The notes beneath the pieces were generated by a model. That model made no database searches and was not told the DNA's origin. It saw only the letters and a list, made by a program, of their open reading frames with translations. DNA of 62,626 nucleotides from a virus. Below are positions 1 through 62,213 of this stretch, piece by piece. The translations under genes were made by a program, and so were the position numbers. Within the stretch, counting starts at the first letter, position 1, and every line of letters begins with the position of its first letter. Where the stretch lies: IMG/VR virus record IMGVR_UViG_3300045988_164134. One strand, written 5' to 3'.

Positions 1-119
1 AAACATGCAAATCTCAGACAAGTCAATAAAAGAATATTCTCGCATTGATAAAGAAAATATTGATATACATGAATTTGCAAAAAAGTGGCTAGGTGTTAAT
101 AAACAAGAGTTGATCCATG
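1..119 (+). repeat. Terminal overlap copy 1 (identical to 62508..62626)
   Basis: Base-by-base comparison of both ends shows 119/119 identical. Confidence 0.95.
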
Positions 120-1072
120 TAGTTGAAACATATTGGGATAACATACTTTTCTTTTTACATGTTATTGAAAATATAAAAGCTAGAGACTCAATAGTAAATG
201 CAATACACATAAATAAAACAGAAAATCCTGTATTGTTTAGCGATTCATCTAAAAAAAATATACAGGAATTAAAGAAAGAAAATATTTATTTTGTTGAAAG
301 ATATATAAAAAGATGGGATACATCAAAGGCGTTTAGAGAATTTATAAGTATAGATGATAAAGTAAAAAACAATACAAATAAAAAAAGCTTTGAACAAATT
401 GGTATTGTTAGCAAAGAAATGAATCACGCCATACCAACGTTTAACGACCATATTCTAGCCAAAGATACATTTTATCGCAGGGCATCTTTTATTCTTCATT
501 TGAATGATATGTTACACATTCAAGAATTAGTGAAAAAAGATACTAGGAAAAGTATTAAAGAATCCAATATCAGTATATATGACCGATATGTACGTGCAAG
601 CAATGCATACATAGAAGCATTGAGAATGGTTGATGAAGCACAAGACGAAAAATGGTTTAAATCTATGCTCGAATCAATGCCGTACTACGAAGAATTTACA
701 GACTTTTACGTTGGTGATTATGAGTATAAAAAAGCTTGTATACGATTGGTTTTGCAAACAGAAACAACGGATTCTAAGCCGACATTATATGATGTGGCAG
801 CAAATGTGGATATAGACGACACAGATGATAGAGGAACTGCAAATATAACTGATACTACAATGCCAACTAAAATATACTTTAACAAACACTATTATAATGC
901 TCCTGAAGTACAAGTCACTGTAAACAGCGGCGTTGGTAATGAAACAGTAACGCCGTATATAGTTAATACAGATGGTATAGACGGTAGTAAACGGTACTTT
1001 GAAGTGGAATTGCGTAACGATTCTAACGAACGAGTTAAAGGGGCAATTTCGTGGATTTCTAAAGGGTGGTGA
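2..1072 (+). CDS. 3' part of a wrap-around tail/baseplate-like structural gene (full CDS = 62215..62507 + 1..1072, 454 aa)
   Basis: The frame is open from ATG 62215 through the junction. The ATG at nt 5 is internal (codon 100). The C-terminus resembles beta-sandwich lectin-like tail tip domains (weak). The stop TGA at 1070-1072 lies just before the fibre-gene SD. Confidence 0.6.
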   Translation, partial: NMQISDKSIKEYSRIDKENIDIHEFAKKWLGVNKQELIHVVETYWDNILFFLHVIENIKARDSIVNAIHINKTENPVLFSDSSKKNIQELKKENIYFVERYIKRWDTSKAFREFISIDDKVKNNTNKKSFEQIGIVSKEMNHAIPTFNDHILAKDTFYRRASFILHLNDMLHIQELVKKDTRKSIKESNISIYDRYVRASNAYIEALRMVDEAQDEKWFKSMLESMPYYEEFTDFYVGDYEYKKACIRLVLQTETTDSKPTLYDVAANVDIDDTDDRGTANITDTTMPTKIYFNKHYYNAPEVQVTVNSGVGNETVTPYIVNTDGIDGSKRYFEVELRNDSNERVKGAISWISKGW

Positions 1073-1076
1073 TATA

Positions 1077-1934
1077 ATGCAAGAATTTTCAGCATTAAAT
1101 ATGACAGAAAATGCCGTTACTGCCATACAAAAAATGCAGAAAAGTATAGAAAGCACAGCGTCTAACTTTAGTGGCGTAGCGTTTCCAACTGAAAACTTGC
1201 AAATAGGCATGCTATGTATGCGTACTGATTTAAACAATAATATATACAAATTAACCTCTCTTGACCCTGCCACATGGGAGCAAGTTGGGGTTGCATCTGA
1301 AACAGCAAGTAAACTGGAAAGTAAAAGAACAATCAAGCTTACTGGAAAAGCGGTGGGAAGCACAACAACAGATTTATCGGGAGATGTATCAATCGAAGTA
1401 AAAGCAGTAACTGCTGATACGGCAAAAACTGCCGATAGTGCAACCAATGCCACTAATGCGACTAATGCGACTAATGCTGATAACGCAAAAAAAGCAGTGA
1501 GTGCAAAAAACGCTACAAACACTACAAAACTAGACCACGATGTCAATATTAACTTAACTGGTGCGGTAACAGGGAGTGCAACAACTAATTTAGCGGATGG
1601 CACACTTAACCTGCAAATGGCGGGAGATGCTAATCAATTTAAAAACATTACGGTCAGTGGTTCACAACAAGGACTTAGATATATAGATGTAGAAACAGAA
1701 CGTGCAGGAGCTGACATTGATTCAAGCTGGACTGAGGGGAGCGGTAATATATCAACACAATACAGACGGTACGAGTGTGTAGCGAATGAATTCCCGGCAG
1801 GAACATATAGCTTGCAAGATATATTACAACGGCTTGTTAATGCGTGTCATAGACACTACGTAAGAGGGATAACGGTAAAAAGTAACTGTATTTGTAAGTG
1901 TAACTGTGCATGTGCCAATAACGATGAAGAATAG
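1077..1934 (+). CDS. Tail fibre protein 1 with (NAT)n repeat and Cys-ladder C-terminus
   Basis: SD AGGGTGGTGA precedes ATG 1077. Fibre-type repeats are present (KRTIKLTGKAVGSTTTDLSGDVSIEV and NINLTGAVTGSATTNL), followed by TADTAKTADSATNATNATNATNADNAKKAVSAKNATN. The protein ends in SNCICKCNCACANNDEE. Confidence 0.75.
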   Translation: MQEFSALNMTENAVTAIQKMQKSIESTASNFSGVAFPTENLQIGMLCMRTDLNNNIYKLTSLDPATWEQVGVASETASKLESKRTIKLTGKAVGSTTTDLSGDVSIEVKAVTADTAKTADSATNATNATNATNADNAKKAVSAKNATNTTKLDHDVNINLTGAVTGSATTNLADGTLNLQMAGDANQFKNITVSGSQQGLRYIDVETERAGADIDSSWTEGSGNISTQYRRYECVANEFPAGTYSLQDILQRLVNACHRHYVRGITVKSNCICKCNCACANNDEE

Positions 1935-2814
1935 TATAAAACTAGGAAGAATATGCATACCACTTGGCATAAGGTGTAATTTATTATGTAGATATTGCTA
2001 TCGAGATATATGCCGAAAAGATATACCTAATAAAGTAAGTAATAAATTTTTATCCTATTTAAAATCACTAGATACTGATAGTTATGCTGTTATATTTAGT
2101 GGTGGAGAGCCATTACTTTACATGGATACAATAAAAAAAATCACCAGTATTCTTCCTAAACATATACACAAAAAAGTAATGACAAACGGCTTGCTTCTTA
2201 CTAAAGAATTGGTGGATTATTTCAATGATAATAATTTCGAGGTACATATATCGCATGATGGGGAACACACAAAAGAATTACGTGGACAAGATGTGTTAGA
2301 AAAGAAATTGCATCTTATAAGAGAAATACGATATTTGCGAATTGTATCGGTTATCAGTAATCACAACACGGATGTCATGAAGGTATATAAATATATACAA
2401 AACAAGCTGAATAGACCGTTTTATTTCGAAGCAAGCCCAATTATCCCAACTGGTTATAATGATGATTTAATTAATGGATTTGATTACGATACATTTGAAA
2501 GAACATTAGCGGAAGTTTTGAGTATACGAAACGAATCACCTTTTGAATGGTATCACAACAAGTCTAGTGGCATGGGATTAAACGTATTATTGGATGGTAG
2601 TATTGTTGGAATGAGTACACTTAATAAATATGGTACGGTATGGGATACAGAGAAAACTATTCGCAGTAACTTCTTAGATAAAGAACACAACCATATTAAA
2701 TATTGTCAGCAGTCTGCGTGTTCCTTAAAAACATGCTATATGAATAAAAGCCTTGCTTGTCAGCACATGTGCAAGATAAATCGTATACGGTACGATATAA
2801 AGAATGAGGTGTAA
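1924..2814 (+). CDS. Radical SAM protein with degenerate/twitch-like C-terminal Cys cluster
   Basis: Motifs CNLLCRYC, SGGEPLL and C-terminal CQQSACSLKTCYMNKSLACQHMC. ATG 1924 overlaps the fibre stop (1932-1934). GTG 1906 is an alternative start. Confidence 0.85.
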   Translation: MKNSIKLGRICIPLGIRCNLLCRYCYRDICRKDIPNKVSNKFLSYLKSLDTDSYAVIFSGGEPLLYMDTIKKITSILPKHIHKKVMTNGLLLTKELVDYFNDNNFEVHISHDGEHTKELRGQDVLEKKLHLIREIRYLRIVSVISNHNTDVMKVYKYIQNKLNRPFYFEASPIIPTGYNDDLINGFDYDTFERTLAEVLSIRNESPFEWYHNKSSGMGLNVLLDGSIVGMSTLNKYGTVWDTEKTIRSNFLDKEHNHIKYCQQSACSLKTCYMNKSLACQHMCKINRIRYDIKNEV

Positions 2815-2816
2815 AT

Positions 2817-3878
2817 ATGATAAACAGAGTTAACTTGATGATGGGTAACAAATGCAATTTCCATTGCCGTCATTGCATACAAAATGATTCAGTAAAAGAC
2901 CAATCCTTAACACTGCCTAATAATGAGGTAATAAAGTACATAAAGCGATTAGCAAACATTCGCCCTAAAAATAAAGGGAAGTTAGATGTGCACTTTTGGG
3001 GGGGGGAGCCGTTAATGTACATGGAAGTGATACAATGCGTCGTGGAAAAAGTAAATAATGCCGAATACACGATCGTCACTAACGGATTGTTACTGGATGC
3101 CCCCATAGTTAACTATTGTAATGAACATGACATAACCGTAGTGCTTAGTAATGACGGCATACATACATCTAAAGTTAGAGGAAAAAACATGCTTGAAAAC
3201 AAACGGTTTATACAGCTGTTTAAACGCCTAAAAAACAAAGCGGTTGATTCCTGTATTACGTCATATAATCAAGATTATTATGCATTGTGGAATTATATAG
3301 AAGCAAAGCTTGGCAAAGATATACCAATATTTCATGAGATGCTTGAATGCACGTGGGATATGCCGAAAGATCTGTATGAGTTTAATTTAGAAAATTATAA
3401 AAAGACAATGGATATGATTGTTGATAATGCATATAAAAAGCTTATACATGGAGAAATAGGCAGAGAGTACATGCTAATTTCAGATACGGCAAACCGCATG
3501 TGTAAAATTGTTGATAACAAACAAGTAGAAGAATATAAATGTTCTCAGATGCGGAATATGGTAAGTATTGATTTAAAAGGCAATGTGTATGCGTGCCATA
3601 ATGCATGTAATGTATTGGGAACTGTAAAAGATGATTGGGAAGTATTAAAAGAACGATATAGCAAATACCTTCAAGATAAAACTCTAGATGATTGCAAGTA
3701 TTGTGAATGGCGTTCGGTGTGTGGTAATGGATGCCCCAATTCATACAATATTTTCCCTGGAAAAGCCATGTCTTGCGAGGTAAAAAAAATATTTATGTCA
3801 GCTTGCATGAGCTTTTTAAAGAAACTACAGGATTCGTTAGAAGACGTGGATATGGAGGATAGTTATGATTGTAATTAG
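2817..3878 (+). CDS. Radical SAM / SPASM-domain protein
   Basis: Motifs CNFHCRHC, WGGEPLMY and the SPASM signature CKYCEWRSVCGNGC (CX2CX5CX3C) with upstream CSQ...GNVYACH. SD GAGGTG lies 3 nt after the previous stop. Confidence 0.9.
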   Translation: MINRVNLMMGNKCNFHCRHCIQNDSVKDQSLTLPNNEVIKYIKRLANIRPKNKGKLDVHFWGGEPLMYMEVIQCVVEKVNNAEYTIVTNGLLLDAPIVNYCNEHDITVVLSNDGIHTSKVRGKNMLENKRFIQLFKRLKNKAVDSCITSYNQDYYALWNYIEAKLGKDIPIFHEMLECTWDMPKDLYEFNLENYKKTMDMIVDNAYKKLIHGEIGREYMLISDTANRMCKIVDNKQVEEYKCSQMRNMVSIDLKGNVYACHNACNVLGTVKDDWEVLKERYSKYLQDKTLDDCKYCEWRSVCGNGCPNSYNIFPGKAMSCEVKKIFMSACMSFLKKLQDSLEDVDMEDSYDCN

Positions 3879-4557
3879 GCGACCATTACAAGAAGGAGAA
3901 AAAAACAAGGTAGAATACAACGTTGATTTAAACAACGATGGCATTATATTTTCTTTTAGCACCACATATATGGGGCAAGATGTAAAAGACAGTGTATCAA
4001 TCCCCTTCAACACGTATAAAGATGTAATCCTGCACTTGTCCTTGCAATGGACACATAAAATAGAAACAAGGTTATATCCATTATACGAATTACAATCACG
4101 CTACAATGTAATTAGTGAAACCAATAACGACGCTTTAGTTCTTGCACGCATATCCATTAATGAAACTTGTGATGACATAGTAATTTTTTTAAACAGCCCG
4201 ACGAACTATACTTGTAAAGTAGCTAAAACGATAGACTGCGAACCCAATACATCCAAGTCAAAAATGATGATGATGTATTCGCCGTATTATACAAAAAGAG
4301 CGGAACATATTCGCAAAAAATGGGATATGATGGCAAATCTTGATATATACGACACAGTTACATATCTTGAATCACAAGTGGACGCATTAACCAAAATTGC
4401 GCTAGGCAATAATAGTGATGACGTTAAAGCGGTATTAACGGCGGCTAATGAACATAGCGTGTTTAATATCAAAAGCAAAGAAAAAATGATTGACGAAATG
4501 CATAAAGATAAAGCGAAAATACGTTCGTTGCAAAAGGAGTATTATGACAAAGCGTAA
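3865..4557 (+). CDS. Hypothetical protein inside the rSAM cluster
   Basis: SD GGAGGA precedes ATG 3865. The gene overlaps the rSAM2 stop by 14 nt and the rSAM3 start by 14 nt. No motif recognised. Confidence 0.6.
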   Translation: MIVIRRPLQEGEKNKVEYNVDLNNDGIIFSFSTTYMGQDVKDSVSIPFNTYKDVILHLSLQWTHKIETRLYPLYELQSRYNVISETNNDALVLARISINETCDDIVIFLNSPTNYTCKVAKTIDCEPNTSKSKMMMMYSPYYTKRAEHIRKKWDMMANLDIYDTVTYLESQVDALTKIALGNNSDDVKAVLTAANEHSVFNIKSKEKMIDEMHKDKAKIRSLQKEYYDKA

Positions 4558-5530
4558 AAAAATTGTACTAAAACTAGGCGGCATGTGTAACTTGCATTGC
4601 AAAAATTGTCATTGTATGCCTCTTAAATTTAAGTATAATCCGGACATTATAGACTGGATAAACAATAATAAAATAGAAGTAATTCACCTTGGCGGTGGTG
4701 AACCGTTTTTGTATTTTGATTTAATTCAAAAAATAGTGCCTAAATTACATGTAAAACAAATAAACGTAACAACAAACGGAACGCTGCTAACTGATGAAAT
4801 GATTAAATTTTGCAACAAGTACAATATACGTGTTGCTTTTTCTTATGACGGACAGAACAGCAAACGTGATCCTGTTTTACCTGATTACGAAAGAATAAAG
4901 AAGTTAAAAAATATTGGTACATCATCTGTTTTTTACCACGGCAATACCAATATACGGCAGATGGAAAACGACTTACATCGGCTTGGTGAAATTTACGATA
5001 TAGATTCATGTAAAAGAACCATCACTTTTTTACCTGCTTTTGTTCATCAAACTAAAAATGCACCCAATAGCGATACCACAAAAGAAGATGCTAAAAGTTA
5101 CATTTTGCAGGTGGGACGTTTATTAGAATTTGGTTTAATGCAGTATGATAAAGAGCAAAAATACTCACTAGGGGCGGCGTTTAATTTTATCCGCCACTAT
5201 TTAAATCACAAGCCATATACGATTGGGTGCAGATGCTGCAATCCCAATAATGTATCATTGGCGATTGATGGGCGCTTTATACTTTGCCCATATGGAAATG
5301 ATTTTGTGGGCGATATATATATAGGTGTAAACTGGGCGGCAGTAGAAGACCACATACCAGATAAGTGTAAAAAATGTGCATTACGTCAATATTGTGGTAC
5401 ATCCTGCGCAGCTCAAATTACGGATAATGAATGTTACATTTTCAGATGTTTGTACAGGCATTATAAAAAACTATTGAAAAAGTACAACATAGACGAAAAT
5501 GACATCCTTAGTTTAGATTTTGATTCATAA
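4544..5530 (+). CDS. Radical SAM / SPASM-domain protein
   Basis: SD AAAGGAG precedes ATG 4544. Motifs CNLHCKNC, GGGEPFLY and the SPASM signature CKKCALRQYCGTSC, preceded by CRCCNPNNVSLAIDGRFILCP. Confidence 0.9.
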   Translation: MTKRKKIVLKLGGMCNLHCKNCHCMPLKFKYNPDIIDWINNNKIEVIHLGGGEPFLYFDLIQKIVPKLHVKQINVTTNGTLLTDEMIKFCNKYNIRVAFSYDGQNSKRDPVLPDYERIKKLKNIGTSSVFYHGNTNIRQMENDLHRLGEIYDIDSCKRTITFLPAFVHQTKNAPNSDTTKEDAKSYILQVGRLLEFGLMQYDKEQKYSLGAAFNFIRHYLNHKPYTIGCRCCNPNNVSLAIDGRFILCPYGNDFVGDIYIGVNWAAVEDHIPDKCKKCALRQYCGTSCAAQITDNECYIFRCLYRHYKKLLKKYNIDENDILSLDFDS

Positions 5531-5544
5531 AGGAGAAGATTATT

Positions 5545-5715
5545 ATGGAAAAAAAACATGTAAACGTATTCAGTGAAAATGGCGAAGTAACAGCAGTACC
5601 TGCATTTGACAGTGCAGAAGAAGAATTGAAACACTATGAAGAAGAACAGAAACGTAAGGAACAGGAAAACAAACATAAAGCACCCGTATTTAGTGAAAAC
5701 GGCGAATTAGAATAG
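5545..5715 (+). CDS. Small acidic 56-aa ORF with duplicated VFSENGE motif (not in ORF track)
   Basis: SD AAGGAGA lies 9 nt upstream of ATG 5545. Translation: MEKKHVNVFSENGEVTAVPAFDSAEEELKHYEEEQKRKEQENKHKAPVFSENGELE. The two 24-nt repeat copies differ mostly by synonymous changes. Confidence 0.5.
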   Translation: MEKKHVNVFSENGEVTAVPAFDSAEEELKHYEEEQKRKEQENKHKAPVFSENGELE

Positions 5716-5723
5716 GTGATTCT

Positions 5724-6101
5724 ATGCAAAACTATCATGATTTGCAAAATACAGAAGCGGCAAATGTATACTTGGATAAAGTCAAAGATAACATACGGAC
5801 AGTTGCAAGTAATTTTAGCGGCACATCATTTCCTACGGATAATCTACAATCAGGAATGTTGTGTTATCGTACAGATGAAAAGAAACTGTACCAATTAACA
5901 AATACATACCCAATTACATGGGAGAGTGTGCAAAGCTCACTCACATTCGATACCACTCCCACAGCCGGTAGCACAAACCCTATTACTAGCGGTGGCGTAA
6001 AGAATGAACTTGATAAGTATGCTAAAAAGACGGATGTTCCGGCTGTTACGGTATCAGGTAATACCATTTCTTTTGGCAGTGTCACCATTGGAGTTGATTA
6101 A
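5724..6101 (+). CDS. Tail fibre protein 2 (short)
   Basis: The N-terminus ASNFSGTSFPTDNLQSGMLCYRTDEKKLYQLT..ITWESV is paralogous to fibre 1. The segment TPTAGSTNPITSGGV is fibre-like. Confidence 0.7.
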   Translation: MQNYHDLQNTEAANVYLDKVKDNIRTVASNFSGTSFPTDNLQSGMLCYRTDEKKLYQLTNTYPITWESVQSSLTFDTTPTAGSTNPITSGGVKNELDKYAKKTDVPAVTVSGNTISFGSVTIGVD

Positions 6102-6707
6102 ATGGCAAAATATATTAGTGTAACGAGAGCAAACGGAGATTTGGAACTTATTCTTCTTGTAGATACGAAAGAATATGGATATAGCTATTTCCCAGTTTTA
6201 TGTTCAGATGGAGTTACTCGGTATGCAGTACTTGGGGAAAGTTCTGATGATAATGTATCACATTTATGGATAACTCAAAACGGCGTAAAAAAATATTTTA
6301 TAAGACAACCAAGTATCACCCCAGCTGTGTACTTAACGATGGGTAAGTATACAGATATGTACGGATTTTCCAATATCGGTTCTTTAAAATTCGGGGCAAT
6401 CAGCGGCACGTTTACGTACAACAGTAAAACAGTTACCGTCCTAACTTTTGAGTTTTATAACCCGTATGTCGATTTTGTTATGCAAATCGACGGCGAAACA
6501 AGTGGAACTTATAATGCAAATGTCACTCTAATAGACCCTGACGCGAATAAAAAGGGAAGTATATATTTTAGTAACATGTACTATCTGGGGTACAGTAAGG
6601 CATTTGTTGGAGATAATACACTATACAGCGGCGATTTACATGATTTTTTTTCAGCTAGTAACGTCGGGAAGAAGTATGTAATAAAAGTAGACATTGCAAA
6701 ACAATAA
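6102..6707 (+). CDS. Hypothetical protein, possibly the distal fibre/receptor-binding partner
   Basis: Its ATG directly abuts the fibre 2 stop. Beta-rich composition, no motif recognised. Confidence 0.5.
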   Translation: MAKYISVTRANGDLELILLVDTKEYGYSYFPVLCSDGVTRYAVLGESSDDNVSHLWITQNGVKKYFIRQPSITPAVYLTMGKYTDMYGFSNIGSLKFGAISGTFTYNSKTVTVLTFEFYNPYVDFVMQIDGETSGTYNANVTLIDPDANKKGSIYFSNMYYLGYSKAFVGDNTLYSGDLHDFFSASNVGKKYVIKVDIAKQ

Positions 6708-6737
6708 TTAAATAAAAAAATATAGGAGCGTGATAAT

Positions 6738-6986
6738 ATGCAAGAAAAAGCACGGAAAATTGTAATGGATTATTTTAATAAACATGTTGATGTAACTGAC
6801 CATAAACAACTTACAATGGATGATGTATTTGTTGTATGGTGGTGTAAAACTTTACAGAACTGGAAAGCGTTAGTATCTACCACTGTTTCTGACGGTATGT
6901 ACTACGAAGTTACGCACAACGGTGATAAGAACGAAACTTACGTTGACGTATATAAGAAGTGGGAAAATTACACAGTAAAAGATTAG
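6738..6986 (+). CDS. Small conserved phage protein, unknown function
   Basis: SD AGGAG. The sequence FVVWWCKTLQNWKALVST..DGMYYEVTHNGDKNETYVDVYKKWEN resembles a small family common in Firmicutes phages (from memory). Confidence 0.6.
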   Translation: MQEKARKIVMDYFNKHVDVTDHKQLTMDDVFVVWWCKTLQNWKALVSTTVSDGMYYEVTHNGDKNETYVDVYKKWENYTVKD

Positions 6987-6998
6987 GAGTGGATAACT

Positions 6999-7448
6999 AT
7001 GAAATACCGTAAGAAACCACCTGTAGTTGATGCGTATCAGACTAAAAGAGAGCGTTGTTGCCACTCGCATAGAGGCGATATATTTGCACAACCTGGGGAT
7101 TATGTAATTACTACGATTGATGGAGAAGAATTTCGTTGCAGGCCTGATATTTTTGAAAAAATGTACGAACCGGTTGAAGACGATGGAATGACTATTGGAC
7201 AAGCTATCGAAGCAATAAAGAAAGGCAAACGTTGTGCAAGAAAATGCTGGAACGGTAAGAGTCAATATATTGAACTGGTTAAAAATGTAAGTTACGTTAA
7301 TTCTAACGGCGAAACAGTTAGGATTAATGTAAATAATGAAACAATGGGAAATAAAGCTATAGCTTTTGTTGGTATATCGGGTGTGCAGCTTGGATGGCTT
7401 GCGTCACAGGCTGATTTACTTTCTGAGGATTGGTATATTGTTGAATAA
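6999..7448 (+). CDS. PGDYG-like N-domain fused to a DUF2829 (Tad2-like) domain
   Basis: The N-terminal part contains KKPPVVDAYQ...AQPGDYVITT. The C-terminal part has the DUF2829 pattern: IGQAIEAIKKGKRCARKCWNGKSQYIEL...LGWLASQADLLSEDWYIVE. Confidence 0.75.
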   Translation: MKYRKKPPVVDAYQTKRERCCHSHRGDIFAQPGDYVITTIDGEEFRCRPDIFEKMYEPVEDDGMTIGQAIEAIKKGKRCARKCWNGKSQYIELVKNVSYVNSNGETVRINVNNETMGNKAIAFVGISGVQLGWLASQADLLSEDWYIVE

Positions 7449-7459
7449 TATGAAAAAGT

Positions 7460-8812
7460 ATGAGAAGGACAAATAAACACCAAATAAACAGAGTGTCTTT
7501 TATCGGCATGACAGGCGGAGTGAATATATCACAGGCACCTGAACAAATAGCCGATACAGAGATGCAACAAGCACAAAATTTTATATATGCGATAGACAGC
7601 AAACGACTAAAAGGGCGTGGCGGACTAGGATTACTAAACACGACGGACGAAACAATTCGTGACATGTGGTATGACGTAGACACCAACGTCCTTTTATTAT
7701 TCACAACGACATTCAAGGTATATCGGTATGTTATGGGGCAGACACCCATATATATAGGTAAGCTAAACGGAAGTTATTCGCCAATGTGTGCAAAATTCAT
7801 GGATAAGATATGGATAGCAAGTGGTGGAAAATTGCAGTATTACGACTATACGCAGAATGCAGAACTACAAACGGTTGGTGATTCGCCGACCTGTTCCATG
7901 GTATTTCAGCGATTTTCACGCATAGCGGTATCACAAGACGGCACAAACGGTTTTTATTTGTCGTCTGTTGGTGATGGCACGGAATGGGCAGAGGATACCA
8001 ATAGGGCAGATAAGGAACAATGGTTAGATGTTGGATATGGTGACAGTGGTACAATTACGGCTATTGTTCCGCTTGCGACTGATATTATCTTTATCAAGTC
8101 AAATGGCAAGATATATCAGCTGAGCGGCGATGCAGACCCGAACGACTGGCAAGTAACAGAAATAGCCAATGGCACCGACCCTGCTGGAACGAATTGTGCT
8201 GTAAACATCGGTAATTCCGTCGTATTCTTGTCTATACGTGGCTTGAAGTCACTAGCAGCAGTTATGGAGTATGGCAATATTGCAACCGCTGATATAGGCG
8301 ATAAATTCAACGGTTTAATTACAGAGAACATGTATGAACCAAGATTTTATCACTTGCAACGGCATAGTTTATTGCTGATACGACCAACTAGCGATTATAG
8401 CTATTTTGTAGCGTATAACTATCAGCTAGGGAGTGCAACAACGCTTAAATTCAATATGGATATAGACGCTATATGTGAAACGAACGATGACATATTGGTA
8501 TCGAGTGAAAATAAGATATATCAGTGGGATGATAGATACACAGATGATGACGGCAAAAAGATAGAGTATGTGTTACAGCCCAAAGCGACCATGGGTATGG
8601 AACAGATGCTCATGAAGGCAATAGATACTAAATTTTCGTCAGACTATTCCGGCAAGGCAACTGTTCAAGAAGGTACCTTGAAAGTATCTGTACCAACTGA
8701 TACAAGAAACAAAATCAAGTGTAATCACTCAACGGACTATATGGATATAACAATTACATCCAATGATAGGTTTATCGTAGACCACATTATGGTAGAGGTG
8801 GCAGATTTATGA
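7460..8812 (+). CDS. Virion structural (tail) protein, 450 aa
   Basis: Sits in the tail module with beta-rich composition. The start is uncertain (no clear SD). Confidence 0.55.
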   Translation: MRRTNKHQINRVSFIGMTGGVNISQAPEQIADTEMQQAQNFIYAIDSKRLKGRGGLGLLNTTDETIRDMWYDVDTNVLLLFTTTFKVYRYVMGQTPIYIGKLNGSYSPMCAKFMDKIWIASGGKLQYYDYTQNAELQTVGDSPTCSMVFQRFSRIAVSQDGTNGFYLSSVGDGTEWAEDTNRADKEQWLDVGYGDSGTITAIVPLATDIIFIKSNGKIYQLSGDADPNDWQVTEIANGTDPAGTNCAVNIGNSVVFLSIRGLKSLAAVMEYGNIATADIGDKFNGLITENMYEPRFYHLQRHSLLLIRPTSDYSYFVAYNYQLGSATTLKFNMDIDAICETNDDILVSSENKIYQWDDRYTDDDGKKIEYVLQPKATMGMEQMLMKAIDTKFSSDYSGKATVQEGTLKVSVPTDTRNKIKCNHSTDYMDITITSNDRFIVDHIMVEVADL

Positions 8813-9267
8813 GAAAAGAATTGTTAGGATGGATACATGAATACGAAGAAAAGACGAAAGAGAAATTCTATGTATTACCCGAATTTACATTATGGTATAT
8901 CCCTGAGAGAGGATTTTGCCAATGGCGGGCAATGGATAAAGAAAAGACTATTCTTTGCTGGAACCTTTGCCATGATGCCAAGTTTTGGCGTGATGCGTTA
9001 GAGTGTGTGGCATTGCAGTGGGGATATGACCGTATTATGACAACCTGCATATTACCCATTAAGGCATATATACGTTATTGGGGATGGGAAATTATGCAGA
9101 CATTTAAAAAAGACGGAATGTACCGGTATATATGTAAAGATAAGCAAGACAGGGAAGTAGTTATCACACCGAAAAGCGTAAACGAAGACGGTACCGTAAA
9201 TTATTTTGTTACAAATGAATTACGGCGAAAATACAAGCCGTGGAAAAATTACGATGAAAGGGCGTGA
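8809..9267 (+). CDS. Hypothetical protein
   Basis: ATGA overlap with the upstream stop. No motif recognised. Confidence 0.55.
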   Translation: MRKELLGWIHEYEEKTKEKFYVLPEFTLWYIPERGFCQWRAMDKEKTILCWNLCHDAKFWRDALECVALQWGYDRIMTTCILPIKAYIRYWGWEIMQTFKKDGMYRYICKDKQDREVVITPKSVNEDGTVNYFVTNELRRKYKPWKNYDERA

Positions 9268-9271
9268 TTAA

Positions 9272-9418
9272 ATGGGTAAAAAGTTTGTAGACCATGGGAA
9301 ATACATAGAATTAATATTAACAGGAATTTGTTTACGTGATAAGTTATACGCCACATTAGAAAAAAATATAAACCAAATAGCCGCGATAGAAAAATCTATA
9401 AAAACGGGGGTGATTTGA
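9272..9418 (+). CDS. Small 48-aa ORF (not in ORF track)
   Basis: Fills the gap between 9267 and 9418. Its TGA overlaps the next ATG (TGATG). Weak SD. Confidence 0.35.
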   Translation: MGKKFVDHGKYIELILTGICLRDKLYATLEKNINQIAAIEKSIKTGVI

Positions 9419-10533
9419 TGTCAAAAAAAGGTGGTGGCAGCCACACAACAACTTACACACCAAGCCCAGAAGAGAGAGCGTTACAAAACGAAGAATTACA
9501 ATATATACGTCAAATCAAACCAAATGCGTTTAAATTAAATGATGTAGCAGGTAACCTGCTATATAATTCATTAGGCGATACGAAAGTAGACTATAATCAG
9601 CTAATGAATGATGCAATTAATCAAGTTAAATGGGGACAACAGGGAATACGCAACTTAGTTGCCGGCAACATTCCATCCAACTATCAAACGGCAATGGAAA
9701 ACAGCATTAAGAGCGGCGTACAAAACAGCATGGGTAATTTACTCAGTGATTTAGGAAACCGTGGTGTAGTCAATTCGAGTGTGATGGATACGGGACTGAA
9801 AGGTATTAGTGACAGTGCTTCAAATGCAATGGCACAGAATTGGAGTAATACCGTAAGCCAGTTACAGTCATTGTATGGCAGTGGCATCGATGCAGCTGGT
9901 CAAGGCACGGCAAATGCGGCAGCAGCACAGGAAGCAGCACAGCAGCCTGCACTTAATTTATGGAATGCGTCGCTAGGATTAAACGGTGCTACAACAGGAG
10001 CATTATCAGCTATTGGCGGTAAAGGCACAACGACAACATCTACAAGTGGCGGCGGTGGCTTGTTCGGTGGTATCCTTACCGGGCTGGCTAGTACCGCCTC
10101 TATTTTCTGTTTTGCGCCAGAAACAAAGGTACGACTGGCGGACGGATCCGACGTTCCGATTACCGACGTCAAAGTTGGGGATAAAGTGCTTTGTCCGCAT
10201 GAAGATGGCACGGAATCTGAAGAAACCGTCCTGCATACCCTGGAACCTCGCTATAGCGACGTATGGAACCTCGTATGCAAAGATGGTGTAGACGATCATT
10301 ATGTCATGGCTACCTTGACACAACCGCTTCTTACGGAGGATAACGGATTTGTCGAAATCAGTGATATGACACTGGGAACGAACCTCAAAGGCTGCGGTAA
10401 AATCGTTAATATGGTATACGCCGGCGAACGCAAGGTATACGACCTGCATGTTTCCAGGGACAATAATTACTATGCAGACGGCTTCATTGCTAAAGGTGGC
10501 AGTACCGACAATTGGGTAAAGGAGGGTAACTAA
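9418..10533 (+). CDS. Internal virion protein with C-terminal Hint (Hedgehog/intein-like) autoprocessing domain
   Basis: SD GGGGGTGA. A Gly/Thr-rich linker is followed by CFAPETKVRLADGSDVPITDVKVGDKV ... VYDLHVSRDNNYYADGFIAKG. There is no terminal HN and no C-extein. Confidence 0.8.
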   Translation: MSKKGGGSHTTTYTPSPEERALQNEELQYIRQIKPNAFKLNDVAGNLLYNSLGDTKVDYNQLMNDAINQVKWGQQGIRNLVAGNIPSNYQTAMENSIKSGVQNSMGNLLSDLGNRGVVNSSVMDTGLKGISDSASNAMAQNWSNTVSQLQSLYGSGIDAAGQGTANAAAAQEAAQQPALNLWNASLGLNGATTGALSAIGGKGTTTTSTSGGGGLFGGILTGLASTASIFCFAPETKVRLADGSDVPITDVKVGDKVLCPHEDGTESEETVLHTLEPRYSDVWNLVCKDGVDDHYVMATLTQPLLTEDNGFVEISDMTLGTNLKGCGKIVNMVYAGERKVYDLHVSRDNNYYADGFIAKGGSTDNWVKEGN

Positions 10534-13271: not shown

Positions 13272-13280
13272 GAGGTAAAT

Positions 13281-16200
13281 ATGGCACTCAACTATCTCGA
13301 TAAAGCCGCTTGGGACGCTGGCGTATATAAAGATAAGGGTAATGATGACGACACGCAACAGGATACTTCTTCTGAGGATTCCGGATATTCGGCGTCTGGC
13401 ATATTGAGCGCCGCTAAAAATTTCCTCAAACACCCATTCCAGGGCATGGGTACTGTCATTGCACCTAATTACACCCCTCGCCCCCTCGACGACAGCGTGT
13501 ACTCGGATATTCCGGGTACACCCGTTGCCAGTGGGCAGTTCGGGGAACTGGAAGACGAAAGCGTCCGCGATGAACGCATGAAGGATTCTGCCGACTACAT
13601 GGCGGCTAACTGGCCGCGTCTGTACGGCGGATTCGTTGCGGCAGACGAAGGCCTGGCTAACGTCGTCGGTGGTATCCAGAACGCCGTTGGCGGCGGCAAT
13701 GGTATCTTGAATAACGTACAGCGCGCCGAAGAAGGGATGCAGGATTATCGCGAACAGTGGAACAACGAGTACGGCGACAGCTATTTCCTAAACCCGAATA
13801 AGTTTGCTACGGACGTTGGCTCCGGTATCGGCTCGACCGTGCCTATCATGGCACTGTCGGCCCTCATGCCGGGCGCCGCCGTCGCAGGTGGCACACGTGC
13901 CTTGACGTCGGCTTTATCCCGTGCAGGGTTAGGCCGTCTTGCTATGTCGAAAGCCGGGCAGGCCCTCATTGCAGATACTGTCCGTTCGATACCTACATCA
14001 AACTTAGCAGACTCCCTGTCTGAATACGGGACCGTCGTTAATGACATGATGCAGAACGGTATGAGTGAAGATGAAGCACGGCGCCGGGCTATCCCGATGT
14101 TCTTCAAGAACATGGCCCTCGATACCTTCACGGTACCTCTTGAATTAGGCGTCATGAAAGGCGGTAAGGGGATTGCGACCGGACTGTTAGGCCGTAGTGC
14201 CGGGGAAGGCATGGCAAAAAGTATCGCCAAAGGCGCGGCCCGTACCGGCATGTTGGCAGGGGCCAGCGGCCTTACGGAAGGCTACCAGGAAGGCGCCCAG
14301 AACGCCCTGGAAAATGACGTGGAAAGCAACCGCGACGGCGGGTGGTACAATCCCTTTACCTGGACTAAGGAAGATTGGGAAGCGGCCCGCGGCGGTTTTG
14401 TCGGCGGCGCTTTGATGGGCGTCCCTGGCAACGTGGCGGCCGGCTTCCATCCCGAAGCAAGACAAGCCCCACTTAGTGCGGAATCCCAGGAACAGGCACA
14501 GAGCATCAAGGATACACTCAGTCACGGCAAACCGAAGGGCATGAGCAACGCCGCGTATAATGCCTATATCGAATTAGCCAATAGCGGGAACCCCGACCTC
14601 ATCAAGCAGGCCGCGTCGTCGCTTGAATCGTTCCAGCAATCGCAAGAAGGCTCCCAGGAAAGCACGGATGACGCCGCCACAGAAGCTTATAAGGATTATG
14701 AAACCTATGACCAGAAGCAGGAAATCGAAAACTTCCTCAACAATAATACGGTTGAGCAAATCGGCGGCGAAAAGAATTTTAACTGGCTCATGGGGGTATT
14801 GCGTAACGGCACGCCGGAAGAAGTGCAGCATGCGTATGATACCGTTATTGCGGCTGAAAAGGCCACGGCCGAACAGGAAGCCAAGAACCGCCCGGCAAGT
14901 GGCGGCGGAAGCATGTCGCCGAATACCGGCAATGCCATGGTTAATATTGTTATCCAGGCGGCTAATGATTCCGGCGTAGAACCACGTCTAGGCCTGGCTA
15001 TTGCCGCCCGTGAAAGCGGCGGGGATGACGTCAATGCCATTTCCATGCCAGAACCTCATGACGGCATTTATGGTATCATGCAGGCCCAGGAGGAAACCGT
15101 TTCCAATATGGGCCTTGACTCCCAGTATCCAGACTGGAAGACGGACCCCTATCAGAACGCCATGGTAGGTATGGCAATCCTAAAGGCTAAAATAGATGGT
15201 GAAAACGGCGACGTATGGGCTGGCGTCCGCGATTACAACGGGGCCGGTGAAGAAGCGGAACAGTATCGCCAGTTGGTCAAGAACAACTATGATAACATGG
15301 GTGATGTTGGTGGCGGTGGTAGTGGCAATGTAGAAGCTCCCAGTGAAGCGTTCTATGATTTGAGCGAAGCCATGAACCCGCAGGTAGACGGCATGGATCC
15401 AAACACCATGGCGAAAATGAATCTCCTGGCCCGCGACTTCTATCAGAAGTACGGCCATCGCCTGTTAGTTACGTCCTTGAAACGTAACGGTGACGGCTCT
15501 TCCTATCATGACGAAGGACACGCCTTTGACTTCTCGGACGACTTTCTAGAACAGAACCCGGACGCCCGCGACTGGCTCGTCCAGCAAGGGGAAAAGTACG
15601 GCCTCAAAGGGCTGGACGAATTCTCTCATCCTGTCGCAACGACTGACGGAGGTAACGTCCACTTTACCGACCATGGCGGCCCGGTCCCTGGCGGTGCATC
15701 CGGCGGCGTATCGAGTAAAGTTGCCGGCGATAATGGGCCGTTTGAACGTGAATTAGACCAGGCCGCGCAGGAAGCCAAAAGCGACATGGACAAGATTCAA
15801 GCTCAAAGCGACCAGGCCATGAATGAAATCATGAACGACGACTCCGCCGAAAAGACGGCGCAGGACGCCCAGCAGGACGCAGAGAACGCCCAGAAGCAGG
15901 CTGATATCGGTAATAACCAGACCGAAACGACGCAGACGCAAGGTGATAATACCACGGATGTTAACCAGGTATTGGGTGCTTTGGGCATTACACAAGATGA
16001 CCTTGCCAGGGCGGCCGCGCAGAATATCATTGGTAAGTTAGACGATAACATCGACCCGAACGACCCTAAATCTATAGACAAGGCAATACGTCAGGCTATA
16101 TCTGCTATGACACCAGATGAGGTTAGGGGAATCGTAAATCAAGCTAAAGGCCAGCAAAAAGCGCCGTCCGCTACACCCGTACCCAAGGCCCAGCAACAGA

Positions 16201-34918: not shown

Positions 34919-35257
34919 ATGAAAGCTATAGAAATCCGTGACCATGTGCCGGAAGGGAATCGGCATGATCGCAAGCTTTTCAAGCGGATTGCCAGTGCGA
35001 TTGTATTCACCCTGGCCCTTGCCACGGCTTGTGGCATCGGCTGGTACGCAGGCGCGAAGCTGGCCTATGAGCAGAAAGCGGCGGGAATCTCCAAAGTCCA
35101 CTACGTGGAAGAAGGGGAAACCCTATGGGACATAGCCGCCGGGCTGGCTGGCGATGAGCAGGACGTAAGAGAAGTGGTATACGACCTGCAAAAACTGAAC
35201 GGGATTGCTCCCGACGCTGACCTCAAAGTTGGCCAGAAGATTGTAATAGCAAAGTAG
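34919..35257 (+). CDS. Membrane-anchored LysM-domain protein
   Basis: TM segment IASAIVFTLALATACGIGWYAG and LysM segment HYVEEGETLWDIAAGL...LNGIAPDADLKVGQKIVI. Confidence 0.75.
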   Translation: MKAIEIRDHVPEGNRHDRKLFKRIASAIVFTLALATACGIGWYAGAKLAYEQKAAGISKVHYVEEGETLWDIAAGLAGDEQDVREVVYDLQKLNGIAPDADLKVGQKIVIAK

Positions 35258-35756: not shown

Positions 35757-35757
35757 A

Positions 35758-36246: not shown

Positions 36247-36256
36247 GGTGCTAGTC

Positions 36257-59992: not shown

Positions 59993-61783
59993 ATGGCGGA
60001 CGAAAAGAACAATAAGCAAATACTGTATATGCCTGAGTTGCCGACGACGGTAAAAGGTGATGGACGGTATGTATTATCACTTTTGCGTAAATATCTTAAA
60101 TCAGTCAATGAGCAGGTAAACATAGCTAACGGATTTACCCAAGATGACATAGAAGAAAATAAAAAAGGCGACTTTCCAAGACCTAAAAACTTTACGCTTA
60201 CATTTGATAGAATGGGCGGCGTTCTGAATTGGGATGCAGTAGACGACGATAAGCTTGCATATTATGAATTGCGCACGAATGACGCCATTGACACGGTAAC
60301 AGGTTTACTGGAAAAGACAACGGCAATATCGTCTATACAGCTGCCACCCACAGCAAGTGGCAAAATATACCTATATGCAGTAAGCACAGAAGGTAAGGTA
60401 TCAAATCCAAATACGCTGACATACAATAAGCGTCGTCCTGAAGCTCCTGGCGACATATCACTAACCAAGAATAATGAAGGCACGCTGATTACATTTCTTG
60501 AAATACCGACAAACTGTATAGGGGCAAATATCTATGTAGATAAAACCAAGTATATATCTCTTGATAATGTATACTTATACCCAGATAAAAGTATTACAGA
60601 TGTTGAGATTGCATACTACGACCAATTCGGTGAAGGCGAACGTGCTAAATTCTCTTGCGTTGTACCTAACGTTACAGGATTTTGGGTAGAAAAGAATGGT
60701 GCCAACTTATATTTCTACTGGGATTCCGTACCAGCCTATAACGTAACTTATGTGGTTAAGGTGGGAGAAACAAACCGGTGGGAAGAAGGAATAGAAATAT
60801 TCCGCTCTAAAACAAACAAGCACCGTTATATACGACCAAATCAGAGCGCAAGTTATTTCATGATAAAGGCAATGGATGACCATAATAACTATTCTAACGA
60901 ATGTGCATGGTACCTGATTGACACAACACTTGAGATTAATAAGAACATTATTCTTAATTTTGACCAAGATAAAGTTGGGTATAACGGCGTAAAAATTAAT
61001 CTCTATTATGACAGCACTAAACACGGTCTTGTATTAGAAGACAACACATTTATTGGCGAATATCTTATACACATACAGCTTCCACAAAAGATAAAAGCAC
61101 GCAACTGGATAGATGATAAAATAAGCGGCTTAACAGAAAATACACTACGTGTTATGGATTTAACATTCCCGCTAAACAGTAAAGAAGCGGAACGGTTTCT
61201 ATTAAATGGGAGTATTGGCGATTTGAATAATGTTTCATTAAAAAAACAAATCGCACGCTATACGGGTAAAAACACGGACTATTTCAATGCATTGACTGAT
61301 GGAACGACAGCCGCAAAAAACGGAACAGTACTAGATGAGCATAACGTTACATTTGATTATGCACGGTTCGATAAAGGGGCACTGATTACTGATATTACAC
61401 GGCTTGAATATTCGTGTGATATTCCTGAAACATATTCAATGTGCTTTTGGATGAAGAAAAGCACGCCCTTTGATGACTGCATTATTATAACGTTAAAATC
61501 AACCAAAACGGGCAACACACTGTATATTGGCTACGATAAACACTATAAACGCTTCTATGTTAAGGACAACGTTCAAGACAAGATGTTATTTCTAGAGATT
61601 GATACGACTGAAAGAGATTGGGTGTTTATTGGTATATCACAATCAGTAAATACACGAATGCTTTTTGTAAAAGAGATAAATTATAATCAAACAAAATATA
61701 TAAAAGATTCTATTCCGGCATGCGGAACCTTTGATAATTTGTGTTTAAGCCAAAAGGGGGATATAAATGCAGACAAAAGATGA
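59993..61783 (+). CDS. Tail protein with a C-terminal LamG/ConA-like jelly-roll (tentative)
   Basis: 596 aa. The C-terminal segment YSMCFWMKKSTPFDDCIIITLKS..GNTLYIGYDKHYKRFYV is LamG-like. Confidence 0.5.
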   Translation: MADEKNNKQILYMPELPTTVKGDGRYVLSLLRKYLKSVNEQVNIANGFTQDDIEENKKGDFPRPKNFTLTFDRMGGVLNWDAVDDDKLAYYELRTNDAIDTVTGLLEKTTAISSIQLPPTASGKIYLYAVSTEGKVSNPNTLTYNKRRPEAPGDISLTKNNEGTLITFLEIPTNCIGANIYVDKTKYISLDNVYLYPDKSITDVEIAYYDQFGEGERAKFSCVVPNVTGFWVEKNGANLYFYWDSVPAYNVTYVVKVGETNRWEEGIEIFRSKTNKHRYIRPNQSASYFMIKAMDDHNNYSNECAWYLIDTTLEINKNIILNFDQDKVGYNGVKINLYYDSTKHGLVLEDNTFIGEYLIHIQLPQKIKARNWIDDKISGLTENTLRVMDLTFPLNSKEAERFLLNGSIGDLNNVSLKKQIARYTGKNTDYFNALTDGTTAAKNGTVLDEHNVTFDYARFDKGALITDITRLEYSCDIPETYSMCFWMKKSTPFDDCIIITLKSTKTGNTLYIGYDKHYKRFYVKDNVQDKMLFLEIDTTERDWVFIGISQSVNTRMLFVKEINYNQTKYIKDSIPACGTFDNLCLSQKGDINADKR

Positions 61784-62213
61784 TGTAAAAATAAAAGGCG
61801 CAATTATTTTAACGGTAAAACATAAAAATGGCAGCGTAGAAACCCGTCGTAAAGACAACCTTATTTTAACTGCTGGGTTCAATTTTATTTGCGACGCTAT
61901 TGCAAATCCGCAACGACCAGCATTAATGGGATTTACGGCGGTTGGCACGGGAAACACAGCAGTAGCGGCATCGCAAACGGGGTTGGTTTCAGAACTATTA
62001 AGAAAGAAAGCTACATATACTCATAGCACAAATAGTAAGGTATTTACATTAACAACAACATTTAACGCCGGAGAAGCAACTGGTGCTATTACAGAAGCTG
62101 GCATTTGCAATGCCGAGAGTGGAGGAACATTCTTAGACAGAGTTAATTTTGCGGTAATTAATAAGGCAGAAGACGATACAATGACAACAACATTCCAGTT
62201 TGCATTATCGTAA
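61767..62213 (+). CDS. Small beta-rich virion protein
   Basis: SD AAGGGGGA. Contains NLILTAGFNFICDAI...GTGNTAVAASQTGLVSE...AITEAGICNA. Confidence 0.5.
   Translation: MQTKDDVKIKGAIILTVKHKNGSVETRRKDNLILTAGFNFICDAIANPQRPALMGFTAVGTGNTAVAASQTGLVSELLRKKATYTHSTNSKVFTLTTTFNAGEATGAITEAGICNAESGGTFLDRVNFAVINKAEDDTMTTTFQFALS

Follow-up and report, generated by a model that had tools for sequence, protein, structure and literature searches.

Phages probably cross-link the tips of host-recognition fibres with radical-SAM enzymes encoded beside the fibre gene

We analysed a phage genome from IMG/VR (record IMGVR_UViG_3300045988_164134), and the whole stretch of 62,626 nucleotides is called the window below. 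Inside its tail-fibre module lie three genes for radical S-adenosylmethionine (radical-SAM) enzymes, named here rSAM1, rSAM2 and rSAM3, together with a gene for a partner protein, ORF230. The gene before them, fibre 1, encodes a protein with a Cys-rich C-terminal tail, and this tail is the likely substrate of the enzymes. We propose that the enzymes introduce thioether cross-links within the tip of the fibre protein, and we give this explanation a probability of about 0.6. Cross-linking of the tips of host-recognition fibres is probable because the pairing of radical-SAM enzymes with Cys-tailed proteins recurs in well over a hundred other phages.

The fibre module of the window

The open reading frames (ORFs) and segments of the module are listed below.

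1077..1934, + strand, fibre 1, 285 aa, the proposed substrate protein
1800..1856, + strand, leader-like recognition segment of fibre 1, aa 242-260, GTYSLQDILQRLVNACHRH, amphipathic helix and HxH
1884..1931, + strand, Cys-rich core and acidic end of fibre 1, aa 270-285, NCICKCNCACANNDEE-COOH, read directly
1924..2814, + strand, rSAM1, 296 aa, radical-SAM enzyme with a 4-Cys, twitch-like C-terminal region
2817..3878, + strand, rSAM2, 353 aa, radical-SAM/SPASM enzyme
3865..4557, + strand, ORF230, 230 aa, conserved partner protein with no known family or fold
4544..5530, + strand, rSAM3, 328 aa, radical-SAM/SPASM enzyme
5545..5715, + strand, 56-aa ORF with VFSENGE twice, probably a genuine small gene
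5724..6101, + strand, fibre 2, 125 aa, with the N-terminal anchor domain of fibre 1, in a variable slot

All genes of the block are on the + strand, directly downstream of the head and tail genes. They form a single, tightly packed, co-directional block in which neighbouring genes overlap or are separated by at most 14 nt. A preliminary description of the window had given the same junctions, with gaps of 10 nt or less, and the ORF table bears the coordinates out. At the first junction, the ATG of rSAM1 (1924) lies inside the end of fibre 1 (aac gat gaa gaa tag), and this stop/start overlap was read directly. A sequence scan found no promoter-like or terminator-like sites within the block above shuffled expectation. 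The three enzyme genes were also described as lying between two fibre genes with a common N-terminal segment, and we found that this segment covers 70 aa at 50% identity (E 5e-21).

Three radical-SAM enzymes without a recognition element

The enzymes carry the CxxxCxxC motifs CNLLCRYC, CNFHCRHC and CNLHCKNC at the positions first reported, and both the GGEP(L/F) and the TNG(L/T)LL...(H/N/Y)DG motifs were confirmed in all three. The CxxxCxxC lies 13-25 residues from the N-termini, beginning at residue 13-18. Furthermore, rSAM1, rSAM2 and rSAM3 score 44.3, 38.4 and 35.8 bits on PF04055, above its gathering score of 29.5 bits. By motif and by model, all three belong to the radical SAM superfamily. 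Their pairwise identity is 23-29% (E 1e-13 to 1e-24), and thus they are old paralogues, in agreement with the paralogy proposed before.

A SPASM domain was recognised either by the pattern CX9-15GX4C ... CX2CX5CX3C ... C, which stands for two auxiliary [4Fe-4S] clusters, or by at least 27 bits on TIGR04085. rSAM2 has both. It scores 36.4 bits on TIGR04085, and in an alignment of 23 homologues its three cluster Cys and seven SPASM Cys are invariant (C242..G255..C260 / C293xxC296x5C302x3C306 / C320). In rSAM3 the full motif is conserved among 11 orthologues (C15/C19/C22 together with C231..G243..C248, C275xxC278x5C284x3C288 and C297), and neither TIGR04085 nor PF13186 is among its listed matches in the Pfam and NCBIfam scans. 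The CX2CX5CX3C signatures that had been noticed near the ends of these two proteins are indeed present (CKYCEWRSVCGNGC in rSAM2 and CKKCALRQYCGTSC in rSAM3), so that two of the three enzymes carry a full SPASM Cys signature, as claimed. rSAM1 conserves C18/C22/C25 and only four C-terminal Cys (C261/C266/C271/C283), and its C-terminus is therefore twitch-like or partial, not a full SPASM domain.

The top NCBIfam matches were PapB, AF0577, QhpD, SCIFF and CcpM maturases. For rSAM2, PapB came first (96.5 bits over the full length), followed by AF0577, nif11-type, QhpD and SCIFF families. PapB (NF047865) was also the top match of rSAM1 (57 bits) and the third match of rSAM3 (45.9 bits), after the AF0577 SPASM subfamily (56 bits) and HxsB; its cut-off is 340, so that the three enzymes stay outside the family. 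Scores were likewise below the cut-offs for QhpD (TIGR03906; 49 bits for rSAM1 and 62 bits for rSAM2, against 453), the SCIFF maturase (TIGR03974; at best 52 against 425) and anSME (TIGR03942; at best 46 against 349). A profile of rSAM2 searched against PDB sequences matched TigE (8vpo, 97 bits), CteB (5wgg, 90 bits) and anSME (4k36, 57 bits), and also SuiB. The AlphaFold2 model of rSAM2 (pLDDT 90.6) was closest in fold to CteB (E 5e-16) and anSME (E 1e-15), then to ChlB, TigE, SuiB and SkfB, and it follows anSME along the whole chain with a template modelling (TM) score of ~0.65.

Enzymes that mature ribosomally synthesised peptides with post-translational modifications (RiPPs) may use a RiPP recognition element (RRE). 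No RRE was found in the three enzymes, and the alignments with CteB and TigE begin at chain residues 96-108 of those proteins, past their RRE. The block also lacks the fused or discrete RRE, a PqqD-like winged helix-turn-helix, of a canonical RiPP cluster. The profile, fold and alignment-start results thus support two proposals of the preliminary description, namely that the enzymes are of the peptide- or protein-modifying type and that a CxxxCxxC so close to the start leaves no room for an N-terminal RRE.

The Cys-rich tail of fibre 1

The translation of fibre 1 shows fibre-type repeats and ends ...GTYSLQDILQRLVNACHRHYVRGITVKSNCICKCNCACANNDEE-COOH. Its last ~45 aa make up a module of an amphipathic helix, HxH, a short spacer, NCICKCNCAC and NNDEE-COOH. 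When 12 divergent tails were aligned, G, Y, L, HxH, CxC and a late D were invariant, and the consensus was GxYx[LI]xx[LI][LI]xxL[VI]xxxHxH, 5-10 residues, NCxCxC... and an acidic end. The helix-HxH segment is also present in stand-alone proteins of 67-79 aa that adjoin radical-SAM genes. The layout of the tail looks like that of a RiPP precursor, a recognition segment and then a core, joined to a fibre protein. Of the residues between Cys in 85 unique tails, 57% were N and 19% were D, together 76%, and Asn preceded the Cys run in 76 of the 85.

A homologue search gave no match for the last 120 aa of fibre 1, and an exhaustive representative search with the last 100 aa gave 49 clusters. NCBIfam had no family for any of ten tail proteins scanned. 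The preliminary description had proposed a virion receptor-binding protein or a co-encoded peptide as the substrate. The fibre part of this proposal is supported, in the narrower form that the Cys-rich C-terminal tail of fibre 1, which had been overlooked, is the likely target.

Recurrence of the gene set in other phages

Relatives were fetched via rSAM2 from IMG/VR and metagenome assemblies. When every ORF of these loci was searched with the three enzymes by BLAST, three separate orthologous groups emerged. The orthologous trio occurs together in the window and in loci L001/2, L003, L004, L005, L006, L090, L092, L093, L094 and L095, and outside the window the rSAM1 group was found in 10 distinct loci. 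The full set of a fibre tail, three radical-SAM enzymes and ORF230 was found in at least 10 distinct divergent phage loci; in L003 it is complete despite a rearranged gene order. Such recurrence in many unrelated contigs shows that the arrangement is not due to chance.

Within the close family, the helix-HxH-NCxCxC-acidic module is always found at the end of the gene directly before the enzyme set (the window, L001/2, L003, L005, L006, L090, L092, L093, L095 and L096). In two further loci the module is reduced: the 101-aa precursor of L004 keeps only the Cys core and the NDEE end, and L094 keeps the Cys run and not the helix-HxH segment. The remainder of the tail-bearing protein varies in sequence and in length (101 to 439 aa).

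A broader version, a C-terminal (Asn/Asp-Cys)n tail with at least one radical-SAM/SPASM enzyme, was found in well over 100 phage and prophage contigs. Distant radical-SAM/SPASM homologues (21-30% identity) are present in dozens of phage or prophage contigs, with hosts that include Limnohabitans, Variovorax, other Burkholderiales, Rhodospirillales and Magnetospirillum, and lie 0-3 kb from same-strand ORFs that end, for instance, in ...RYNCNCDCNCC or ...TNCNCNCNCCGC.

This linkage holds in both directions. In the forward direction, 89 of the 163 loci fetched with radical-SAM sequences had a same-strand Cys-tail ORF within 3.1 kb, and Cys-tail ORFs made up 95 of 5801 plus-strand ORFs versus 2 of 6272 on the minus strand. 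In the reverse direction, stretches of IMG/VR were found solely by a degenerate DNA pattern for NCNCNCNC, and 120 were among the matches listed. Among these listed matches, the pattern stood at the C-terminus of an ORF in 71 of 120 stretches, and 49 of the 71 had a radical-SAM gene within the stretch that was fetched; our own table count gave 30 of 32 for the NCNCNCNC-tailed stretches with at least 4.5 kb of room, again among the matches listed. In addition, tail type and enzyme number vary together, with three radical-SAM genes beside helix-HxH tails in 9 of 15 cases and one beside plain (NC)n tails in 107 of 153.

Some loci have further arrangements. L004 encodes two tail proteins, radical-SAM genes beyond the core trio and two ORF230-like genes. 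Its second complete set (L004:10760-16149) consists of a 300-aa CQ-repeat protein ending CNCNCNCNCISH, three further radical-SAM genes, an ORF230-like gene and a ThiF-like E1 enzyme, and the last hints at an additional C-terminal activation chemistry. At L225:6202-7114 and L263:2048-2972, three tandem paralogous proteins of 92-109 aa end in NCNCNCNC or a variant of it beside one radical-SAM gene; they look like multi-precursor RiPP clusters, yet their N-termini have fibre-type motifs. In a separate class (L099:7384-7983, L111:7766-7954 and L013:6641-7966), a single radical-SAM/SPASM gene follows a protein with a Gly/Ser/Glu-rich tail, such as ...YEGSSGEGSGGEGSGGE or ...CGSEGGCGGGEG, and no CxC run. 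This class is found mainly in IMG/VR contigs and in one Succiniclasticum genome, and it may be a sister system with a different chemistry.

The tail carriers as fibre proteins

Homology and synteny with fibre proteins and the N-terminal anchor place the tail-bearing protein among fibres. The anchor domain is common to fibre 1 and fibre 2, and the fibre 2 copy gave the match to gp028 of Achromobacter phage JWF (35% identity between the N-termini, E 1e-12). In JWF, the gene order is tail assembly protein, central tail fibre J (gp026), a small gp027, gp028, gp029, gp030, terminator and endolysin. The protein gp028 (L291:4664-6115) contains ...KPRQNCNCDCNCNCS and then a Hint domain, and gp030 is a radical-SAM/SPASM enzyme; the JWF homologue was formerly annotated as anSME. 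In Ralstonia phage RSP15, ORF048 is annotated as 'side tail fiber', ends NTNCQCGN and lies upstream of a radical-SAM gene. On a 90-kb sipho-type contig (L170), the tail-bearing protein follows the tape measure, distal tail and tip proteins. Limnohabitans-type elements have the 148-aa and 450-aa tail proteins in common with the window. Linkage of homologues to fibre genes, which had been set as a check on the original idea, is therefore conserved in widely differing phages, such as JWF, the sipho-type contig and the Limnohabitans-type elements. The cultured carriers are Achromobacter phages JWF and 2-1 and Ralstonia phage RSP15.

A Hint domain follows the Cys tail in frame in about 10 of the 49 representative clusters. 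Relatives of this type are L009:186-848, P0059, P0062, P0066, P0072, P0074, P0077, P0088, P0096 and JWF gp028, with a junction such as ...DCGGT|CFVKG. P0077 and fibre 1 are nearly identical at their N-termini. Self-cleavage by the Hint domain would make the tail the new C-terminus, similar to the one that the window encodes directly. The Hint variants and the direct C-terminal tail together suggest that a free C-terminus near the Cys run matters. The thioester intermediate of a Hint domain might also serve for ligation. Elsewhere in the window, a 372-aa protein (9415-10533) carries at its C-terminus a Hint/intein-like domain (in the L002 homologue, CFAPETKV...) that is just below the Pfam threshold. 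It is a second candidate for self-processing in the structural module, unrelated to the Cys tail.

ORF230, the 56-aa ORF and fibre 2

ORF230 has homologues in 15 clusters, none of which has a Pfam domain. It has the invariant motif D.Y...TYLESQVDALT in its helical C-terminus. An iterated hidden Markov model found ORF230 beside radical-SAM genes in many loci (32 ORFs), among them loci of Sutterellaceae and Burkholderiales types, and JWF gp029 carries the motif as ALEAQVDLLT. By this distribution, ORF230 is a fourth conserved member of the system. In its AlphaFold2 model (pLDDT 79), a beta domain at the N-terminus is predicted with confidence and the C-terminus is helical. Fold searches against PDB and BFVD gave no significant match, the best being SPP1 gp22 (E 0.05, TM 0.5 for the target). 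A role as an RRE or a chaperone was unsupported by the Pfam and fold searches.

The co-encoded peptide that had been put forward as a possible substrate is the 56-aa ORF. Only the two closest relatives, L001 and L002, have it; the codon changes are synonymous in 12 cases and non-synonymous in 10. L003, L005, L006 and L090 lack it. Because it has no Cys and lies outside the conserved set, we reject it as a co-substrate. It could be a small fibre-associated or exclusion protein. Its PAFDS.EEE motif occurs in three copies in a 120-aa lipoprotein-like ORF beside the L004 fibre gene (L004:4194-4556).

Fibre 2 was also considered as a substrate and rejected, having no Cys tail and a variable slot; in L002 this slot holds an unrelated 277-aa fibre.

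Genomic context of the block

The first and last 119 nt of the window (1-119 and 62508-62626) are identical. Thus the window is a complete circular phage genome of ~62,507 bp once closed, and the gene starting at 62216 crosses the junction and continues into 5-1072. The structural genes before the fibre module are the following.

57289-58491, major head protein
61767..62213, + strand, 148-aa tail protein upstream of the fibre module, PHROG 5417 and 4176 ('tail fiber protein')
5..1072, + strand, C-terminal 355 aa of a structural protein of ~455 aa that starts at 62216, across the junction

The 148-aa protein is 50% identical to L057:3559-4005 of a Limnohabitans contig, and both lie upstream of a tail-bearing protein, which is (NC)n-tailed in L057. 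The full-length homologue of the ~455-aa protein, L002:6883-8250, is 24% identical to L057:4011-5363 (E 4e-29). The order of the 148-aa protein, the ~450-aa protein and the tail-bearing protein is therefore kept between the window and the Limnohabitans contig. A near-identity DNA search with positions 1-9300 found no match among GenBank phages, and this phage is known only from metagenomes.

The block had been described as AT-rich. Windows of 1 kb confirmed it (31-40% GC over 1-9 kb versus 48-56% at 10-18 kb), though AT-richness is not unique to the block, since 27-35 kb is similarly AT-rich. The base composition of the genome is mosaic, with 48-56% GC at 10000-18000 and 35000-43000 and 31-42% in much of the remainder. 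A single 3988-aa ORF at 13281-25247, a 'large polyvalent protein', has an SLT transglycosylase domain (aa 557-665), ddrB-ParB (1101-1237), LPD3 (1827-1945) and LPD38 (3710-3889), and is probably an injected internal virion protein. The first GC-rich stretch spans a 912-aa ORF and the first third of this giant ORF. A tRNA-Ile with anticodon TAT (53526-53600) overlaps the listed GTG start (53566) of a 751-aa ORF, probably the portal, whose true start must thus lie further downstream.

Proposed mechanism and its alternatives

We propose that the block is a phage-borne, RiPP-like maturation system that would act on a virion protein and not on a free peptide. Fibre 1 would be fixed to the tail by its N-terminal domain, with the Cys module at the distal C-terminus. 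The three co-translated enzymes, of which rSAM1 has one C-terminus of auxiliary-cluster type and the other two a full SPASM domain, would modify this C-terminus in the infected cell, before or during fibre assembly, and ORF230 would probably assist by holding the helix-HxH segment in place of the missing RRE. A hydrogen would be abstracted from a carbon of Asn, Asp or Glu, the sulfur of the adjacent Cys would attack that carbon, and several intraprotein thioether rings would result. The product may be a compact knot at the receptor-binding end, resistant to reduction and to proteases, and the chains of the trimer might be stapled together as well. Thioethers are also what the nearest characterised relatives make. 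One of them, PapB, joins Cys to the carbon next to the carboxylate of an Asp or Glu C-terminal of the Cys, or to the C-terminal residue (PMC12373016). In the window tail, Cys is followed by N, D or E and the free C-terminus is acidic. The alternation of Cys with Asn or Asp and the acidic end thus fit a ladder of donors and acceptors.

Several points weigh against this explanation. The substrate and the bond type are read from gene linkage and from distant homology at 20-25% identity, and no enzyme reaches a curated equivalog cut-off (96.5 versus 340 for PapB). The presence of fibre 1 in the virion is a prediction. No RRE was found in the enzymes, and ORF230 has no detectable similarity to one. 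Compared with the NCNCNC consensus, the tail of the window (NCICKCNCAC) is also the less regular. Elsewhere, many tail-bearing proteins have a length of just 61-113 aa and resemble classical RiPP precursors, which leaves room for a released product. Finally, some hosts, such as Achromobacter, are aerobic, and thus the argument that thioethers replace disulfides under anoxia is not general.

The alternative that survives best, though we consider it unlikely, is that the tail is the substrate of another chemistry, such as an anSME-like conversion of Cys to formylglycine, epimerisation, C-C or ether links, or a mixture with one reaction per enzyme. The anSME fold is as near to rSAM2 as that of CteB (E 1e-15 versus 5e-16) and likewise has no RRE, and the epimerase YydG/EpeE and SuiB are among the matches. 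Furthermore, rSAM1 has no full SPASM domain, and three enzymes that diverged so long ago (23-29% identity) suggest more than one type of reaction. However, anSME scores below the thioether maturases (46 versus 96 bits for PapB; 57 versus 90-97 bits in the PDB search), its substrate motif C/S-x-P/A-x-R is absent from the fibre tail, and the strict alternation of Cys with Asn or Asp in the 85 tails fits a pairing of donors and acceptors best.

It is rather improbable that the block is a phage-borne RiPP cluster whose modified Cys peptide is cut off and freed at lysis as a bacteriocin, a signal or a metal chelator, with the fibre part as a long leader. Stand-alone precursors of 67-113 aa with the same leader-like helix and Cys core (L004, L122, L180 and L232) and the tandem precursor paralogues of L225 and L263 would agree with such a product, and the Hint variants show that C-terminal processing is in use. 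However, neither the window block nor the conserved set has a leader protease, a C39-ABC exporter or an immunity gene. A leader peptidase or exporter was found neither among the nine ORFs of 5-6707 and their neighbours (Pfam, NCBIfam and PHROG scans) nor in the conserved set of related loci. Moreover, the carrier has a true fibre anchor domain, common to the second fibre and JWF gp028, and sits within the tail module of unrelated phage types. The core is at the extreme C-terminus, where fibres bind receptors, and even the small proteins have fibre-type N-terminal motifs.

A metal site deserves less credit still. Some SPASM families are metallo-cofactor maturases, and HxH together with the Cys run might form a metal or iron-sulfur needle on the trimer axis, built or inserted by the radical-SAM/SPASM enzymes. 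The invariant HxH stands just upstream of the Cys run and is presumably comparable to the HxH iron sites on the fibre axis of T4 gp37; alternating Cys would line one face of a beta-strand, and weak matches to W_rSAM_matur and rSAM_Geo_metal were seen. Nevertheless, we doubt this explanation strongly, since the metallo-cofactor matches are weaker than the peptide-maturase ones and lie mainly in the core domain, most plain (NC)n tails have no HxH, and the scaffold or carrier genes typical of cofactor pathways were not seen.

The idea that the genes are auxiliary metabolic or anti-defence enzymes (QueE-, viperin-, NrdG- or MoaA-like) for a host or nucleic-acid target, with an incidental position near the fibre, is very improbable and already largely refuted: the weak prokaryotic viperin, MoaA and QueE matches and PHROG 2076 ('QueE-like') that speak for it cover the N-terminal core only, at 23-51 bits against cut-offs of 180-284 (viperin_w_prok at most 50.8 against 180, MoaA at most 32.8 against 284-325, QueE 26.7 against 260), and SPASM domains, fold matches and the reciprocal, co-varying linkage to Cys-tail proteins stand against it. 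A nucleotide or cofactor role was rejected. The best matches are not to QueE, NrdG, MoaA or viperin; best matches of that kind had been named beforehand as a result that would count against the original idea. Each of the refuting conditions that could be checked by computation turned out in favour of that idea.

Thioether cross-linking of the fibre tip may also be put in a wider form, which we hold tentatively, at somewhat less than even odds. Phages of many lineages (gut, freshwater and soil; podo-, sipho- and myo-types) may have grafted a new RiPP-like class on their fibre tips. In this class, 'Cys-every-second' Asn/Asp-Cys repeats would become a ladder of thioether rings through dedicated radical-SAM/SPASM enzymes, possibly bridging the three chains; ORF230 would replace the RRE, and Hint domains would trim the C-terminus in some phages.

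Novelty and significance

No published description of radical-SAM enzymes that act on phage fibres or on Asn-Cys repeat tails was found in the full-text literature that could be searched, to which subscription journals are mostly external. To this extent, the result agrees with the preliminary description, which was aware of no described phage fibre-maturation system of this kind. What is new is not the enzyme class, which is known, but the substrate class, the partner protein, the layout of several enzymes with no RRE and the virion context. The nearest published concept that we found is the anchoring of fibres by disulfides in cyanophage Pam3.

If our explanation is true, phage assembly and host-range biology would gain a new layer, in which a dedicated radical-enzyme pathway acts on a receptor-binding fibre. 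In the wider form, enzyme-installed radical chemistry would be needed for host recognition or for the stability of the fibre, and virion maturation of this type is not known so far. RiPP-type chemistry would be extended from small secreted peptides to large structural proteins, and a new substrate class, (N/D-C)n tails, would be defined together with a new recognition partner, ORF230. It could also explain why phage tail modules, that of JWF among them, contain radical-SAM genes with the annotation 'arylsulfatase regulator' or 'anSME'. In addition, maturases that need no RRE and modify whatever protein bears their C-terminal tag would be attractive for protein stapling, and engineered phages with swapped fibres may need these enzymes for infectivity. 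The explanation is directly testable because cultured carriers exist.

Comparison with known systems

anSME has the same size and layout as the enzymes of the window (a core and SPASM, no RRE) and acts on a Cys in a folded-protein substrate. However, the enzymes score at best 46 bits against 349, the sulfatase motif is absent from the tail, and no sulfatase-like match was found among the window proteins scanned (Pfam, NCBIfam and PHROG).

The NxxC beta-thioether system (NxxcB) and the 'Cys-every-fifth' CefB-type RiPPs have regular Cys repeats, with Asn as a possible acceptor, and we mention them as a lead only. An NCxC run holds overlapping NxxC units. There was no significant specific match to these families (CefB, 27.8 against 600 for the JWF enzyme); in the phages, Cys stands at every second residue and the carrier is a structural protein.

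Covalent or metal stapling of phage structural proteins is seen in the HK97 capsid, a covalently reinforced part of the virion with its isopeptide chainmail, and at the HxH sites of T4. To our knowledge, known covalent reinforcement of virions is autocatalytic or oxidative, and we know of no use of dedicated radical enzymes encoded beside a fibre gene in HK97, Pam3 or T4. In cyanophage Pam3, the fibres are anchored by disulfides (PMC9942802). All three cases are autocatalytic, oxidative or metal-mediated and differ in this from the chemistry proposed here.

PapB and CteB, the latter forming a thioether to a backbone or side-chain carbon, are the best sequence, profile and fold matches of rSAM2 and share the 7-Cys SPASM domain. 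However, rSAM2 is far under the cut-offs (96.5 versus 340; 52 versus 425) and has no N-terminal RRE. Here, three phage-encoded enzymes and a partner protein, ORF230, would act on the end of a 285-aa fibre with Cys at every second position, whereas the substrates of PapB and CteB are free peptides with CX3D repeats. The acceptor logic would be that of PapB, with Asp or Glu after Cys and a C-terminal carboxylate nearby in the window tail (PMC12373016).

The cut-off for QhpD, 453, was not approached; QhpD has an N-terminal extension, and its substrate is an enzyme subunit with no phage or fibre context. In quinohemoprotein amine dehydrogenase, QhpD introduces thioethers between Cys and Asp/Glu within the gamma subunit. 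It is conceptually the nearest case, a radical-SAM/SPASM enzyme that cross-links a protein which stays in its functional assembly and does not turn into a natural product.

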